Of a stretch of DNA of 27,513 nucleotides, positions 2,157-12,479 are shown piece after piece. The position numbers and the translations under genes are program-made. The notes under the pieces are model-generated. The model made no database searches. It worked only from the letters and a program-made list of their open reading frames with translations, and was not told the origin of the DNA. Numbering within the stretch: position 1 is the stretch's first letter; each line of letters begins with the position of its first letter. This DNA is from Escherichia coli (GTDB taxonomy: Bacteria; Pseudomonadota; Gammaproteobacteria; Enterobacterales; Enterobacteriaceae), in NCBI RefSeq assembly GCF_003334385.1, contig NZ_QOWN01000057.1; one strand, 5' to 3'.

Positions 2157-4307
2157 TTAGTGGTGCGAAGAGATCTTCACGCCGCCTTCCGGGATTGGAA
2201 CGTACGGTGTTTCTTTGTCAGTACGTTTGTCGCTGTTACGCACCGCAAGCCAGGTTTTGAAACCGTAGAAGATGATGCTGTACACCACAATCAGGAACAG
2301 AATACTCAGACCTGCGTTGGTGTAGTTGTTCACAACGATGTGGTTCATGTTGGCAATCTGCTGCGCCGTCAGGTCAGTACCGTTAGCAATCTTCTCTTTG
2401 TACTGGCTTGCCATGTAGAAGAAGCCTTCCATCTGCGGGTTGGTGCTGAACAGTTTCAGGCCCAGCGCCCAGGTGGTGCAGATAAGCAGCCATACAGCCG
2501 GAACAACAGTTACCCAGATGTATTGGGTGCGCTTCATCTTAATCAGCACAACGGTGCCCAGTACCAGCGCTACGGCTGCCAGCATCTGGTTGGAAATACC
2601 GAACAGCGGCCACAGGCTCTTAACGCCGCCCAGCGGATCGACCACGCCCTGATACAGCAGGTAGCCCCACAGACCCACACAGCCCGCAGTACCGATGATA
2701 CCGGCAACCAGAGAGTCGGTTTTTTTCAGGAACGGGATGAAGTTACCCAGCAGGTCTTGCAGCATAAAGCGGCCAGAACGGGTACCCGCATCCAGCGCGG
2801 TCAGGATGAACAGTGCTTCGAACAGAATACCGAAGTGATACCAGAAGCCCATGTCAGCCATCGGCAGCACTTTGTGGAACACGTGAGCGATACCTACCGC
2901 CAGCGTCGGCGCACCACCTGCACGGTTCAGGACAGAAGGCTCACCAATGTCTTTCGCGGTTTGCAGGATCTGCTCTGGCGAAATCACGAAGCCCCAGGAG
3001 CTGACGGTCGCTGCCGCGTGTGCGGTAACGTCTTTCAGCTGCGCCATGATGATCGGCGCGTTCTCGCCACCCATTTCATGCAGGTTAGGCATGGTGATGC
3101 CAAGGCCAGCAGGCGGGGTGTTCATCGCGAAGTAAAGACCCGGTTCGATGATGGACGCAGCAACCAGCGCCATAATCGCCACGAAGGACTCCATCAGCAT
3201 TGCGCCGTAGCCGATGAAACGCGCGTCGGTTTCATTAGCCAGCAGTTTTGGCGTCGTACCGGAAGAGATCAGCGCGTGGAAGCCAGATACCGCACCACAG
3301 GCGATGGTGATGAACAGGAACGGGAACAGAGCGCCTTTCCACAGCGGGCCAGTACCGTCAATGTACTGGGTCATGGCAGGCATTTTCAGTTCCGGGTTCA
3401 GCACCACGATACCCAGCGCCAGGCCGACGATAACGCCGATTTTCAGGAAGGTTGCCAGATAGTCGCGCGGTGCGAGGATCAGCCACACCGGCAGCAGTGC
3501 GGAAACAAACGCATAGCCAATCAGCGCGAAGGTAATGGTGGTGTCTTTAAAGGTCAGTGCCGGACCCCAGTACGGATCGTGAGCAATCACGCCACCGAAG
3601 TAGATAGAGGCAACCAGCAGCACGATACCAATGACAGAGACTTCACCCACACGCCCCGGACGAATAAAGCGCATGTAGATACCCATAAACAGCGCAATCG
3701 GTACGGTTGAGCAAACGGTGAAGACACCCCACGGACTTTCGGCCAGGGCTTTAACCACAATCAGCGCCAGGACGGCGAGGATGATGATCATGATTAAGAA
3801 ACAGCCAAACAGCGCGATAGTCCCCGGTACTGGTCCCATCTCTTCTTTGATCATCTCACCAAGAGATGCGCCATTACGGCGAGAGGAGATAAACAGCACC
3901 ATAAAGTCCTGAACCGCACCGGCCAGCACGACCCCCGCCAGCAGCCACAGCGTGCCAGGCAGGTAGCCCATCTGCGCGGCGAGAACCGGACCCACCAGCG
4001 GACCAGCACCGGCGATAGCGGCGAAGTGGTGACCAAACAACACGTAACGGTTGGTCGGAACGTAGTTCAGACCGTCGTTGTTAATAACCGCAGGCGTCGC
4101 GCGCGTGGGGTCGAGTTTCATCACCTTCTGGGCGATGTACAGACTGTAGTAGCGATACGCCACCAGATACACCGATACAGAGGCGACCACGATCCACAGG
4201 GCGCTGACGTGCTCCCCCCGACGTAATGCAACTACCGCGAGGCAGAATGCACCGATGATTCCGAGAATCACCCAGGGTATGTGCTTGAATATCTTTTTAG
4301 TATCCAT
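2157..4307 (-). CDS. btsT: Pyruvate/H+ symporter BtsT (CstA family), formerly YjiY
   Basis: Long polytopic membrane protein. Start trimmed from 4322 to MDTKKIFKHIPWVILG..., matching my recollection of the K-12 N-terminus (716 aa). Confidence 0.9.
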   Translation of the reverse strand: MDTKKIFKHIPWVILGIIGAFCLAVVALRRGEHVSALWIVVASVSVYLVAYRYYSLYIAQKVMKLDPTRATPAVINNDGLNYVPTNRYVLFGHHFAAIAGAGPLVGPVLAAQMGYLPGTLWLLAGVVLAGAVQDFMVLFISSRRNGASLGEMIKEEMGPVPGTIALFGCFLIMIIILAVLALIVVKALAESPWGVFTVCSTVPIALFMGIYMRFIRPGRVGEVSVIGIVLLVASIYFGGVIAHDPYWGPALTFKDTTITFALIGYAFVSALLPVWLILAPRDYLATFLKIGVIVGLALGIVVLNPELKMPAMTQYIDGTGPLWKGALFPFLFITIACGAVSGFHALISSGTTPKLLANETDARFIGYGAMLMESFVAIMALVAASIIEPGLYFAMNTPPAGLGITMPNLHEMGGENAPIIMAQLKDVTAHAAATVSSWGFVISPEQILQTAKDIGEPSVLNRAGGAPTLAVGIAHVFHKVLPMADMGFWYHFGILFEALFILTALDAGTRSGRFMLQDLLGNFIPFLKKTDSLVAGIIGTAGCVGLWGYLLYQGVVDPLGGVKSLWPLFGISNQMLAAVALVLGTVVLIKMKRTQYIWVTVVPAVWLLICTTWALGLKLFSTNPQMEGFFYMASQYKEKIANGTDLTAQQIANMNHIVVNNYTNAGLSILFLIVVYSIIFYGFKTWLAVRNSDKRTDKETPYVPIPEGGVKISSHH

Positions 4308-4514
4308 AGTAAAACCTGGCATGTATTGATTAATAGTTGGCCGAAGCCGTTCTAGGTTTGCGTTGCGTTTGAGGAGGTAAATTGACCGCTATCCTGTAGT
4401 GATGTTGCCAGAGTTACGCGCGCGTAAAGTAAGGTAAATAACTGAGTGGTTATTTTAGGGATGTAAGCGGTCAGTTTTGCGGTTGAGCGGCAAAGGCGTC
4501 GTTTAAGTGACGAT

Positions 4515-4540
4515 AAATATGTGATTCATATCACATATTT
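4515..4540. promoter_or_regulatory. Candidate CRP site: 10-bp inverted arms AAATATGTGA / TCACATATTT around a 6-bp spacer (core TGTGA-N6-TCACA)
   Basis: Read directly from the sequence; the core matches the CRP consensus half-sites. It lies in the divergent btsT-tsr intergenic region; btsT/yjiY is known to be cAMP-CRP dependent. Confidence 0.5.
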
Positions 4541-4626
4541 ATATTGTGAATAATTTATGTAAATAATGGCTTTTTAAATTCAGAGTGTGAATAAAATTAC
4601 TCGGCGTAATCTCCGCGGGATATTCA

Positions 4627-4653
4627 TAAAGTTTTTCCTTTCCAGGCCGAAAA
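4627..4653 (+). promoter_or_regulatory. Sigma-28 (FliA) type promoter for tsr: TAAAGTTT-N11-GCCGAAAA
   Basis: Matches the FliA consensus TAAAGTTT-N11-GCCGATAA with one mismatch, about 30 nt upstream of the tsr start; tsr belongs to the flagellar class 3 regulon. Confidence 0.55.
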
Positions 4654-4683
4654 TCTTGCATCGGTCCACAGGAAAGAGAAACC

Positions 4684-6348
4684 ATGTTAAAACGTATCAA
4701 AATTGTGACCAGCTTACTGCTGGTTTTGGCCGTTTTTGGCCTTTTACAACTGACATCAGGCGGTCTGTTCTTTAATGCCTTAAAGAATGACAAAGAAAAT
4801 TTCACTGTTTTACAAACCATTCGCCAGCAGCAATCCACGCTGAATGGCAGCTGGGTCGCGTTGTTGCAGACGCGTAACACCCTCAACCGCGCGGGTATCC
4901 GCTACATGATGGATCAGAATAATATTGGTAGCGGTTCAACCGTTGCTGAGCTGATGCAGAGTGCCAGTATTTCGCTGAAACAGGCGGAAAAAAACTGGGC
5001 GGATTACGAAGCGTTGCCGCGTGACCCGCGTCAGAGCACCGCCGCAGCGGCAGAGATCAAACGTAATTACGATATTTATCACAATGCGCTGGCGGAGCTG
5101 ATCCAACTATTAGGTGCAGGCAAAATCAACGAGTTCTTTGATCAGCCGACCCAGGGATATCAGGACGGTTTCGAGAAGCAGTATGTGGCTTACATGGAGC
5201 AAGACGATCGGCTCTATGATATCGCCGTCAGCGATAACAATGCCTCCTACAGCCAGGCGATGTGGATTCTGGTGGGCGTGATGATCGTCGTACTGGCGGT
5301 CATCTTCGCCGTCTGGTTCGGTATTAAAGCCTCGCTGGTAGCGCCAATGAATCGCCTGATTGACAGCATTCGTCATATTGCAGGCGGCGATCTGGTGAAA
5401 CCGATTGAGGTGGATGGCTCTAATGAGATGGGGCAACTGGCAGAGAGTTTGCGCCATATGCAGGGAGAGCTGATGCGTACCGTCGGTGATGTGCGCAACG
5501 GGGCCAATGCCATCTATAGCGGTGCCAGCGAAATCGCCACCGGCAATAACGATCTCTCTTCGCGCACCGAGCAACAGGCCGCTTCGCTGGAAGAGACGGC
5601 AGCCAGCATGGAGCAACTGACCGCAACGGTGAAACAGAACGCCGAGAATGCGCGTCAGGCCAGCCATCTGGCGTTAAGTGCTTCTGAAACGGCGCAACGC
5701 GGCGGCAAAGTGGTGGATAACGTAGTACAGACCATGCGCGATATCTCCACCAGTTCGCAGAAAATCGCCGATATTATCAGCGTAATTGACGGCATTGCCT
5801 TCCAGACCAATATTCTGGCTTTGAACGCGGCGGTTGAAGCAGCGCGCGCGGGTGAGCAAGGGCGCGGTTTTGCGGTGGTCGCGGGTGAAGTGCGTAATCT
5901 GGCTCAGCGCAGCGCTCAGGCGGCTCGTGAAATTAAAAGCCTGATTGAAGACTCGGTGGGGAAAGTAGATGTTGGCTCTACGCTGGTCGAAAGCGCAGGG
6001 GAAACAATGGCGGAGATTGTCAGTGCCGTGACCCGCGTGACGGACATTATGGGCGAAATTGCTTCTGCTTCTGATGAGCAGAGCCGTGGTATCGATCAGG
6101 TTGGCTTAGCGGTTGCTGAGATGGACCGGGTAACTCAACAGAACGCTGCGCTGGTGGAAGAATCTGCCGCTGCCGCCGCCGCGCTGGAAGAGCAGGCCAG
6201 TCGCCTGACCGAAGCTGTGGCAGTGTTCCGGATTCAGCAACAGCAGCAACAGCAGCGTGAAACATCGGCTGTGGTAAAAAACGTGACGCCAGCTACGCCG
6301 CGTAAAATGGCAGTGGCAGATAGCGGGGAGAACTGGGAAACGTTTTAA
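4684..6348 (+). CDS. tsr: Methyl-accepting chemotaxis protein I (serine chemoreceptor)
   Basis: Two transmembrane segments, HAMP domain, highly conserved MCP signalling domain, C-terminal NWETF pentapeptide. 554 aa here, with a 7-Gln tract in the C-terminal linker. Confidence 0.95.
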
Positions 6349-6359
6349 TCGCCATAAAA

Positions 6360-6389
6360 ATGCCCGATAAGCAAAATGTTATCGGGCAT
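6360..6389. terminator. Bidirectional terminator hairpin (atgcccgataa / ttatcgggcat) between tsr and lgoT
   Basis: Perfect 11-bp inverted repeat with an 8-nt loop, flanked by an A-run on one side and a T-containing tract on the other, between convergent genes. Confidence 0.6.
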
Positions 6390-8887: not shown

Positions 8888-9025
8888 ATTTTCCTCCTTG
8901 TGAGTCCATTAAAACCCGATTTAAAACATTTTTATGCGTGTGTTTTCACAAAACAGATTTTCCGTTCCGCTGCCATTTTTCATTTTCATTGATATCTAAG
9001 GCAACAAAAAATGGAGAGCCGAATC

Positions 9026-10048
9026 ATGTCTACGATGAATGTTTTAATTTGCCAGCAGCCGAAAGAATTAGTCTGGAAACAACGCGAGATACCTATTCCG
9101 GGTGACAATGAAGCATTAATAAAAATTAAGTCTGTCGGGATTTGCGGTACCGATATTCATGCCTGGGGTGGAAATCAACCATTTTTTAGTTATCCACGGG
9201 TTTTAGGCCATGAAATATGTGGGGAGATTGTTGGGCTGGGTAAAAATATTGCAAATCTTAAAAATGGACAGCAAGTAGCGGTGATCCCTTATGTTGCCTG
9301 TCAGCAATGCCCGGCGTGTAAAAGCGGGCGTACCAATTGCTGTGAAAAAATTTCAGTCATTGGCGTGCATCAGGATGGCGGTTTTAGTGAGTATTTGAGC
9401 GTGCCGGTGGCGAACATTTTGCCCGCAGATGGTATTGACCCGCAGGCGGCAGCATTGATTGAACCTTTCGCTATTAGCGCTCATGCGGTACGTCGCGCAG
9501 CCATTGCTCCCGGCGAGCAGGTGCTGGTGGTCGGGGCGGGGCCAATCGGTCTGGGCGCGGCGGCAATCGCTAAAGCCGATGGCGCACAGGTGGTGGTGGC
9601 GGATACCAGTCCGGCGCGCCGTGAACATGTGGCAACGCGTCTGGAGTTGCCCGTGCTGGACCCATCAGCCGAAGATTTTGACGCGCAGCTGCGGGCGCAG
9701 TTTGGTGGTTCTCTGGCGCAGAAAGTGATCGACGCGACAGGTAATCAACATGCGATGAATAACACCGTGAATCTGATTCGTCACGGCGGCACGGTGGTAT
9801 TTGTCGGTCTGTTTAAAGGTGAGTTGCAGTTCTCCGATCCAGAATTCCATAAAAAAGAAACGACGATGATGGGTAGCCGCAACGCCACGCCGGAAGATTT
9901 CGCTAAAGTCGGTCGACTGATGGCGGAAGGGAAAATCACTGCCGACATGATGTTAACCCATCGCTACCCGTTCGCCACGCTGGCAGAAACCTACGAGCGT
10001 GATGTGATTAACAATCGTGAGTTGATTAAGGGTGTAATTACTTTCTGA
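9026..10048 (+). CDS. lgoD: Zn-dependent L-galactonate-5-dehydrogenase (MDR family)
   Basis: GxGxxG Rossmann motif VVGAGPIGLG and a Cys/His-rich zinc region. Start trimmed from 9011 to MSTMNVLICQQ... (340 aa) to match my recollection of K-12. Confidence 0.85.
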   Translation: MSTMNVLICQQPKELVWKQREIPIPGDNEALIKIKSVGICGTDIHAWGGNQPFFSYPRVLGHEICGEIVGLGKNIANLKNGQQVAVIPYVACQQCPACKSGRTNCCEKISVIGVHQDGGFSEYLSVPVANILPADGIDPQAAALIEPFAISAHAVRRAAIAPGEQVLVVGAGPIGLGAAAIAKADGAQVVVADTSPARREHVATRLELPVLDPSAEDFDAQLRAQFGGSLAQKVIDATGNQHAMNNTVNLIRHGGTVVFVGLFKGELQFSDPEFHKKETTMMGSRNATPEDFAKVGRLMAEGKITADMMLTHRYPFATLAETYERDVINNRELIKGVITF

Positions 10049-10143: not shown

Positions 10144-10178
10144 GATGTGTAGGTCGCACCTTATGCGACCTACACATC
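10144..10178. repeat. REP-like perfect 15-bp inverted repeat (gatgtgtaggtcgca / tgcgacctacacatc)
   Basis: Perfect palindrome with a 5-nt loop between convergent lgoD and opgB, preceded by a gtaggccgga motif typical of REP elements. Confidence 0.5.
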
Positions 10179-10187
10179 AGTCAGAAA

Positions 10188-12479
10188 TTACCCTTCACGT
10201 TCCACAACTTTAATTTCCACCATGCCGATCCCGAGCTTACGCGGCGAGTGTCCGAGGATATTCCCTTCGTTGGTTGAGACAGGTTCCGGCGGCACAATTA
10301 CCAGTGTGTCGGCATCGGTTGGGTTATCGAAATGCAGTGTGGTGGTGGTCACTTCATTGCCCAGCACAAGAGTTTTTTCTTCATTGCCTACGCGTACCGG
10401 AATAGGACGGCTGGCGTTATTGCCGTATGCTTTGGCGGTAATCACCAGGTCAAATTTCTTCGGCAGCGGATGCTTGTACTCGATTTTTACTTCATCGCCC
10501 AGCTGCGCGTTGGACCAGCGGCCCCACGACTCTGGACGGGAAATCCCACTAAACTGTTTCACCTCTTCTGGCGCACCGGCGACGTTGAAGATGAAACTGT
10601 CGGCTTTGTAGCGAATATCGTTATCAACAATTTTCAGCGTATCGACATTGCCTTTATAACGCGCCATGTCGATGACCGTATCTTTAAATGCCGTTTTGCC
10701 CTGCCATGTTGTTTTGTCAACATGCTGAACAATTTGCTGACCGCCAAGCTGCCCTTGCGAGACACACCAGTCGGTGGAGAGTGCCAGTTCCGGAGCCCAG
10801 AGTTGTGCCATCTTATAGCAACGGTCAACCCAGACGAAATTGTCGCGTGGAGCGAAATCGGCCAGCTGGAAACGCAGCGGTGCTGAGTATTCGCTTTCCG
10901 GCAGCGGTTCCACGCGTTTGTCTGAAACCCGCAACAGCAGCGGCAAACGGAAATGGCTACCCGAGAAGGCAATCATGTTTTTCTGCTGGTCGATGGTGAA
11001 CTCTTTCATCTCTTTAGGGAATTTCCACAGGCGGATGATATCTGGCTTCCACGCCAATGTTTTCTCTTTGATATTGAGGAAGATTTCCGACATCGACTGC
11101 CCGGATAAACTGCTACGACCAAGTCCGAGATAGTTATCGCCACCGAGAATGTCCAGCACCGTCGCGCCGTTATCCATCGTGTTACGCTTCACTGCCAGCG
11201 TCTCTTGCTGCGGCTTGTCGCCACGAATGACAAAAAACAGGTTATTGCGATCCTGCTTATTGAGGTATTTCCACGCCGTGTTGTTCATCGCTAAATGGTC
11301 AGAAGAGACGACGATGACAGTATCTTTAAACCACGGTGACGCTTTGATTTTGTTGATAAACGTCGCGATATTCTCCTGGCTGCAACTTACCGCGCTGAAT
11401 GACTGATTCGGTTTACCGTCAAAATCATATTTTTTGCGGTTACAGGTACGAGAAATAAAACCATCCGGGTGATGGGTATCGACTGTCAGGGTAAACAGTG
11501 AGAATCGCTGACCTGAGCGGGAAAGCTCTTCAAACTTTTTCCACGCTTCATCGAGAACGGTATCGTCGTAGAATCCCCAGTCGTTGCGATAGTGCGGGTC
11601 GGCTACCACGCTTTTCAGCTCTTCTGAGCCGTATAAGTGGTCGAAGCCGTGCGATTTCAGGAACACATCTTTACCGGCAAAACGCAGATTTGCGCCCTGC
11701 ACGAAATAGTTCTGATAACCCGAGTTTTTCAGGATATCGCCCAGACAGATGTTCTGCGGGAAGAAGCTGGAGACAGAGGCGGAGGCGTTGCCTTCAAAGG
11801 GGGCAAACAGCGGTATGCCGCACTGAGAAGCCACCATGCCCGCAATCGTGTAATCCGTTCCTGGCAGCTGCTGCGTGTGGCTGAAATCCAGGCCTTCATT
11901 TTTCAACGCGCCCAGTTCAGGCGTGAGATCCGGGAAAGCCTCGTTATCAAAATAGGTCCGCTCGAGACTTTCGCCGTAGATATAAACCAGGTTGAGTTTC
12001 GGGTCAGGGATAGTTTTCGACGGCTCTTTATAATAAGCCGCAAAGTCCGGGTCGCCATCGCGTGACTGGGATTTCACCAGTTCCGTTATCTGACGAAATG
12101 CCGGGCTGGCGTCCACCGAACCCAGCGCCAGTAAGAGCGCCAGCAGGCTGTAACCAAAATGGTGCGGATGATGGCGACGACGGCGCAGGATCCAGCCCAG
12201 CGCACCGAACACCGCTGTCAGCCCCAGCACAATGCCGATACCCGGCAGGATGTATTTGCTGACGCCAGCACCGGTCAGGCTGTTGGTTAAGGTATAGAGA
12301 ACCGCGTCGTTAATACCATCGCCAGTAAAATAGTCGCTGGCAAACAGGGTGATATTTAAAACGACAAATAGCCCCAGCACTGTTAATGTGGCTGCAAACC
12401 ACCAGGTGTTACGTCCCGCTTTCCATGCGTAAATCAGCACAGAGGCGAGAAAAAGGGCGAAAGAGAGTAGTTCTGACAA
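10188..12479 (-). CDS. opgB: Phosphoglycerol transferase I (OPG biosynthesis, sulfatase-type domain)
   Basis: 763-aa ORF with an N-terminal membrane anchor and a large periplasmic domain, in the K-12 mdoB/opgB position. Confidence 0.9.

Follow-up and report, generated by a model that had tools for sequence, protein, structure and literature searches.

The btsT-tsr spacer and its palindrome

The palindrome described here lies in a 376-bp spacer (positions 4308-4683) between two divergent genes of the window, by which we mean the whole stretch of 27,513 nucleotides of Escherichia coli DNA that was analyzed. On one side, btsT, formerly named yjiY, encodes a pyruvate/H+ symporter and occupies positions 2157-4307 of the minus strand, with its ATG at 4307, according to the open reading frame and to the RefSeq annotation of identical DNA; it is the gene under the control of the site. 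On the other side, tsr is encoded on the plus strand with its ATG at 4684. The spacer is 100% identical to that of many E. coli chromosomes, in which RefSeq annotates btsT and tsr as the flanking genes, and the annotation of these matching records bears out the divergent btsT-tsr context given in the initial annotation of this DNA. The palindrome is also identical in K-12 MG1655, where the spacer has a 1-bp insertion about 60 nt away: relative to positions ~4598-4599 of the window, MG1655 (L084) has one extra C (AAAATTCACTCGG vs AAAATT-ACTCGG). Hence, the window carries the K-12-type allele of the region, but is not K-12 itself.

The initial annotation described the element at 4515-4540 as two perfect 10-bp arms around a 6-bp spacer, and the sequence that it gave matches the window exactly (AAATATGTGA-TTCATA-TCACATATTT). 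A repeat search revealed that the palindrome is larger than this. It is a perfect inverted repeat of 30 bp (4513-4542), whose arms of 13 nt at 4513-4525 (ATAAATATGTGAT) and 4530-4542 (ATCACATATTTAT) are 100% complementary and separated by a loop of 4 nt (TCAT). The motif TGTGA-N6-TCACA that had been read inside the palindrome is indeed present, perfect, at 4520-4535, and this is its single occurrence in the 27.5-kb window. The core alone is within what is expected by chance, since the motif with at most one mismatch gives at least one match in 58 of 100 shuffles. The palindrome with 13-nt arms, on the other hand, exceeds chance: dinucleotide shuffling of the window produced a perfect inverted repeat of this kind (arms ≥13 nt, loop ≤8 nt) in 2 of 200 runs, and 5000 shuffles of the 376-bp spacer never produced arms of 12 nt or longer. 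When single-stranded, it folds into a 13-bp hairpin of -9.9 kcal/mol (z -4.9).

Other perfect inverted repeats were observed elsewhere in the window. The longest perfect palindrome, with 15-nt arms (GATGTGTAGGTCGCA ccTTa TGCGACCTACACATC), is found at 10144-10178 between the convergent ORFs 9011-10048 (plus strand) and 10188-12479 (minus strand), and is probably a terminator or a REP-like element. A repeat with 11-nt arms (ATGCCCGATAA...TTATCGGGCAT) at 6360-6389 follows the stop codon of tsr (6348), precedes a convergent ORF, and is probably a bidirectional terminator.

The core of the palindrome belongs to a 22-bp cAMP-CRP site at 4517-4538 (ATATGTGATTCATATCACATAT, to which no strand is assigned), identified from its sequence, from a SELEX listing, and from orthologous sites. 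The 22-bp consensus of CRP is AAATGTGATCTAGATCACATTT (aaaTGTGAt...aTCACAttt). The 22-mer of the window agrees with it at 17 of the 22 positions, with both 5-bp cores perfect, and the mismatches are all at positions of low information. The centre of the site falls between 4527 and 4528, i.e., at -220.5 from the ATG of btsT and 156.5 nt upstream of the ATG of tsr.

This site has been published before. Genomic SELEX with purified CRP identified the yjiY<>tsr spacer as a target at 4.58952 Mb, with the site TGTGATTCATATCACA (Shimada et al. 2011, PMC3105977). This 16-mer is identical to positions 4520-4535 of the window, and the CRP reading of the initial annotation had thus recovered a site that was already listed. 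The accompanying statement that btsT/yjiY requires cAMP-CRP is in line with the published record, since the deletion of crp completely abolishes the expression of btsT-lux (PMC7730263). Several papers of the Jung laboratory report that btsT needs cAMP-CRP on top of BtsS/BtsR, the gene is described as catabolite-repressed in the literature, and PhyloScan (2007) ranked yjiY 4th to 7th genome-wide among its CRP predictions. Considering the SELEX listing, the effect of the crp deletion, the Jung papers, and PhyloScan, the CRP site of btsT counts as already known, and the palindrome is an already documented cAMP-CRP activator site of the btsT promoter. The supplements of Crp ChIP-exo work mention neither yjiY, nor btsT, nor tsr, and we found no in vivo CRP occupancy there. 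A full-text literature query with the 16-mer itself returned no match.

The btsT control region across Enterobacterales and within E. coli

The CRP site is followed, in the direction of btsT, by repeats of the BtsR (YehT) type on the minus strand. They were searched with the motif ACC[G/A]CT[C/T]A, whose definition reportedly goes back to Kraxenberger et al. in 2012. A regex scan and the conservation profile identified the promoter-proximal repeat, ACCACTCA, at 4443-4450 and another, ACCGCTTA, at 4464-4471, which are 21 nt apart from start to start, with a 13-nt spacer. A third, distal repeat of the BtsR type, GCCGCTCA, was found at 4484-4491 by a motif scan and as a block of conserved columns. 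It lies 20 nt upstream of the two published ones and is conserved across Enterobacterales (AACCGCT.A; loci L002-L081). The window's copy has one mismatch to the motif, and most other species, as well as the other E. coli alleles, have ACCGCTCA or ACCGCTTA at this place.

The core promoter of btsT can be tentatively placed at 4411-4439 of the minus strand, with a -35-like ATTTAC (4439-4434), a 17-nt spacer, and a -10-like TAACTC (4416-4411). This putative promoter is suggested by conservation of the block ATTTACC...TCTGGCA, which follows the proximal BtsR repeat in the direction of btsT. A scan for consensus sigma-70 promoters reported no btsT promoter downstream of the BtsR repeats, and the supplements of an E. 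coli/Klebsiella paper on transcription start sites do not mention btsT and gave no transcription-start data for it. From the position of the putative promoter, we infer that transcription of btsT may start near 4404, which would put the centre of the CRP site near -123 and the BtsR repeats between about -87 and -39. Such a position, which would be exceptionally distant for a CRP site working by itself, is compatible only with co-activation; this assignment of an activation class is as conditional as the transcription start, which is itself deduced from the sequence.

To place the site in an evolutionary context, 80 btsT loci, one per species, were fetched across Enterobacterales using the N-terminus of BtsT (MDTKKIFK) as the search pattern, and their upstream regions were scanned for CRP-like cores and for the BtsR motif. 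There were 78 testable upstream regions, i.e., regions that are long enough, corresponding to 75 species loci and three E. coli alleles. In 76 of these 78 btsT promoters, a core NGTGA-N6-TCACA (at most two mismatches) starts 44 +/-1 nt before the distal BtsR repeat. The centre of the CRP site is about 36.5 nt (35.5-36.5) before this repeat, with or without tsr as a neighbor, and the three BtsR repeats are 20-21 nt apart across the loci. The fixed spacing between CRP and BtsR sites is found in Escherichia, Salmonella, Citrobacter, Klebsiella, and Enterobacter, and out to Proteus, Lonsdalea, and Erwinia. The profile of 76 aligned sequences has as conserved blocks GTGATC..ATCACAtAttt, the three BtsR repeats, and the ATTTACC...TCTGGCA block mentioned above. 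The btsT-proximal half-site TCACA is essentially invariant and its flank (TCACA-TATTT) is also conserved, whereas the far half-site varies (TGTGA, CGTGA, or AGTGA) and has a flank of near-zero information content.

Some loci have additional elements. In Kluyvera (L026), a second perfect TGTGA-N6-TCACA core (TGTGAtttaaaTCACA) is found 445 nt upstream of btsT, besides the conserved site. The 5' leader of btsT contains, directly ahead of the ribosome-binding site, an inserted ERIC/IRU-type element (~123 bp, core GTGAATCCCCGGGAGCTTACAACAGTAAGTGACAGGGGTGAACG) in E. albertii, another Escherichia species, Citrobacter portucalensis, and the E. coli allele called hpa-type below (L003 about 2320-2470, L004, L012, and L088 2375-2500); the window lacks it.

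Within E. coli, the variable part between btsT and tsr begins at 4491, which is the first base of the distal BtsR repeat, and we distinguished three structural alleles. The K-12-type allele, where tsr is adjacent, has a 132-bp segment (4491-4622) that holds the palindrome and is found in about 2750 of 5426 complete genomes. In the hpa-type allele (about 2070 genomes; L088, 2665-5164), the hpa (4-hydroxyphenylacetate) operon lies between btsT and tsr. The O157-type allele (about 366 genomes, mainly O157; L001, 1684-2500) has an 817-bp segment with an ORF for a hypothetical protein of 180 aa. This ORF (L001 1793-2335, minus strand) has no significant match among NCBIfam, Pfam, or PADLOC families, its best weak matches being a TnsA-like N-terminal domain (E 0.11) and an orphan methyltransferase model (E 9e-4, 16 bits).

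Each of the three alleles has a perfect TGTGA-N6-TCACA exactly 29 nt beyond a shared GAGCGG, so that the distance to the BtsR repeats is the same in all. The sites, given in the orientation of btsT, read tataaataTGTGAtatgaaTCACAtatttatc in the K-12-type, atttttatTGTGAtctcaaTCACAtatccacc in the hpa-type (whose site is also given as ATATGTGATTGAGATCACAATA), and gcttcggtTGTGAtcatcaTCACAtaaataac in the O157-type. Among these alleles, arms that extend past TGTGAT/ATCACA are found in the K-12-type alone. The terminator hairpin of hpaC, in the hpa-type allele, starts about 9 nt past the CRP core, so that the conserved btsT control region ends outward at the CRP site. One E. coli strain has TCGCA instead of TCACA.

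A direct repeat containing TGTGAATAA was observed between the CRP site and the tsr promoter, at 4537-4553 and 4578-4594 (41 nt apart). The possibility that the TGTGAATAA copies at 4545 and 4585 serve as additional CRP half-sites was rejected. Both are mutated (TGCGA, GGGTGA) in E. coli sub-alleles of 95% identity, and these TGTGA motifs are thus probably not functional CRP half-sites.

Alternative readings of the site and of its long arms

The location of the site in a divergent spacer raises the question of its relation to tsr. The promoter of tsr is of the sigma-28 type (TAAAGTTT-N11-GCCGAAAA, 4627-4653, plus strand), as judged by comparison with the sigma-28 consensus TAAAGTTT-N11-GCCGATAA, in keeping with the SELEX peak that was reported for the RpoF holoenzyme in this spacer. 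It lies about 100-120 nt from the palindrome, outside the CRP/BtsR module. The CRP SELEX paper gives the target as yjiY<>tsr and does not choose a side, so that one could conceive of a shared, bidirectional site that also controls tsr. We find this improbable given the distance of some 120 nt to a promoter of another type, and because about 45% of the E. coli genomes have an inserted ORF or the hpa operon between the site and tsr. The tsr promoter is retained in the O157-type allele, while the palindrome segment is not. Furthermore, a Tsr homolog is found within 2.5 kb in only about 30 of the 80 species loci, and the approximately 50 loci lacking a nearby tsr keep the CRP site, which indicates that the site travels with btsT and not with tsr. 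Its spacing is likewise fixed relative to the BtsR repeats, not to tsr. One could also see in the palindrome a structural nucleic-acid element, be it a terminator, an RNA hairpin, a cruciform or recombination junction, or the remnant of a mobile element, as it can form a stable 13-bp hairpin and belongs to the 132-bp segment that distinguishes the K-12-type allele. To this we give almost no credence. A terminator was rejected because there is no T-run and a scan gave no terminator-like site, and no gene reads into the palindrome in the K-12-type allele. The Rfam scan of the spacer gave no family at threshold, its sole match (Pistol, 20.4 bits for a gathering score of 34.5, E 0.18) being taken as chance. 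The segment is single-copy in nearly every carrier genome (median 1, highest 2 places), which speaks against a repeated or mobile element, and the different sequence that the other alleles have at the same place is again a CRP site.

The length of the arms requires a separate explanation. We scored the outward extension, i.e., the perfect complementarity beyond the 5-bp core, over 77 sites. It is 0-3 nt in 75 of them (0 nt in 60 sites, 1 nt in 11, 2 nt in 2, and 3 nt in 2), and it is 0 in the hpa-type and O157-type alleles. The remaining sites are the one of the window (K-12-type), with 7 nt, and the one of Citrobacter werkmanii (L010: TGAAAATATGTGActaaaaTCACATATTTTCA), with 8 nt. The latter, 224 nt upstream of btsT, also has 13-nt arms (TGAAAATATGTGA-ctaaaa-TCACATATTTTCA), with a sequence that differs from that of the window. 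When the left flank of one species was paired with the right flank of another as a control, the probability of an extension of at least 7 nt was 9e-4; from the local composition, the probability of a 7-nt extension is about 1e-4. Among the 75 distinct sites, 0.07 cases with at least 7 nt are expected and 2 are observed. Long perfect palindromes are thus commoner here than composition predicts, and the improbability of the 7-nt extension given the composition of the flanks suggests that something beyond a minimal CRP site shaped the palindrome. Part of this extension is the 22-bp CRP consensus itself. Its conserved part is the btsT-side flank, which is within the ~30 bp that a CRP dimer is known to contact, and the extra arm length is particular to the K-12-type allele, such that the conserved function can do without it.

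According to the initial annotation, the unusually long arms could indicate a second, overlapping regulator. While its CRP site and the link to btsT hold, both being already published, this part of the interpretation is not supported: the extension is missing in two other E. coli alleles and in nearly all species, even though the position of the CRP core is kept. In its fullest form, the arms would be a composite operator, in which the AT-rich outer arms (ATAAATA/TATTTAT) are read by a second dimeric regulator, either in competition or in cooperation with CRP. In its favor, such a perfect extension is unusual in statistical terms, a review reports that LeuO represses btsT (we could not locate a LeuO site), and an overlap of Fis and CRP sites was proposed at the paralog cstA (PMC7730263). 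Nevertheless, we regard a second regulator as very unlikely. The comparison across species that had been proposed as a check of the arm extension gives an unconserved distal flank, and the E. albertii ortholog of the K-12-type allele has three differences in the arms (4513, 4535, 4539), none of which is compensated, at a rate like that of the surrounding DNA. The E. coli sub-alleles that differ from the window at about 5% of the neighboring positions do keep the arms, with changes at the centre (TCAT to TTAT) and at 4512, just outside; however, zero arm changes is not significant when about 1.2 are expected. The only other motif checked, that of IHF (WATCARNNNNTTR), fits with one mismatch on each strand, and as there are 69 such matches in the window for 45 expected by chance, this fit is uninformative and an IHF site was not retained. 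The long arms may instead be a mutational by-product with little or no functional effect. Quasi-palindrome correction is a well-known source of mutations in E. coli, and a template switch of this kind during replication might have used the btsT-side flank as the template for the other arm. The CRP site, being a 6+4+6 palindrome, can seed an intrastrand hairpin, and the single strand folds into a stable one. The btsT-side flank TCACA-TATTT is conserved and the other arm is its exact mirror. All three E. albertii differences are one-sided, with the E. coli state complementary in each, and two of the three sit close together in the distal arm, at a distance of 4 nt. The independent lineage of C. 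werkmanii, with its 8-nt extension of another sequence, adds to the excess over the expectation. We hold this origin to be possible, but somewhat doubtful: there is no outgroup with the K-12-type allele, an ancestral palindrome that was perfect and decayed in E. albertii would explain the data just as well, the same pattern is predicted by selection for a CRP site of greater symmetry and affinity, and two cases are a small sample.

Both selection for a more symmetric, stronger CRP site and template-switch correction fit the long arms, and the C. werkmanii case could reflect either. We consider it unlikely that the outer arms have a function in the K-12-type lineage, either by making a high-affinity symmetric CRP site that alters the cAMP response of btsT relative to the hpa- and O157-type alleles, or by docking an additional regulator that binds AT-rich palindromes (e.g., LeuO). 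If they had one, the palindrome of C. werkmanii would represent repeated selection or repeated template-switch symmetrisation of the CRP site.

Proposed co-activation of btsT and comparison with known promoters

Taken together, the palindrome is very probably the cAMP-CRP site of the btsT promoter, where CRP co-activates with phosphorylated BtsR. The binding of CRP in vitro (SELEX), the requirement for crp, and the conservation of the site and of its spacing to the BtsR repeats are shown. In the mechanism that we propose, a CRP dimer would bind the 22-bp site at 4517-4538, immediately upstream of the three repeats for BtsR, a response regulator of the LytTR type. CRP and phosphorylated BtsR would then co-activate the transcription of btsT, placing pyruvate uptake under catabolite repression. 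From its putative position near -123, CRP may act as an upstream co-activator through contact with alpha-CTD and/or DNA bending, as at rhaSR and araBAD. The btsT-side arm would correspond to the conserved TCACA-TATTT flank, of which the other arm would have become the mirror image in the K-12-type lineage.

Since the CRP site and the crp dependence of btsT were already published, the finding in itself adds little. The comparative analysis, however, assigns the CRP site firmly to btsT and not to tsr. It also defines a rigid module of a CRP site and three BtsR repeats across Enterobacterales, the third of which is degenerate in K-12. Finally, it shows that natural E. coli have three variants of the CRP site at one position, which constitute a ready allelic series for relating the symmetry of the CRP site to the catabolite control of pyruvate uptake. 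The lineage-specific, possibly recurrent symmetrisation of the site is a minor curiosity.

The site resembles other CRP sites of E. coli in its perfect TGTGA/TCACA cores, their 6-bp spacing, the T/A inward of the cores, and the A/T-rich flanks, as well as in being bound by CRP in SELEX next to a crp-dependent gene. It differs from them in its symmetry, which runs 4 nt past the 22-mer on each side, for a total of 30 bp, close to the length of DNA contacted by the CRP dimer in crystal structures. This extension is restricted to one E. coli allele and C. werkmanii.

The closest functional parallels are co-dependent promoters such as rhaSR (with CRP at -111.5, upstream of RhaR), araBAD, and acsP2 (with a distal CRP site at -122.5). 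As in these promoters, CRP at btsT is directly upstream of the repeats of the specific activator, here BtsR, at a fixed spacing, and expression needs CRP as well as this activator. In contrast with them, the partner at btsT is a LytTR-type response regulator with three direct repeats, and the position of CRP relative to the transcription start is deduced from the sequence. The promoter of cstA, which encodes a paralogous transporter, is also CRP-dependent and has an unusually distant CRP site, far upstream, with which overlapping Fis sites were proposed (PMC7730263). The two promoters nevertheless differ, as the deletion of fis had no significant effect on the expression of btsT (PMC7730263), whose specific activator is BtsR.
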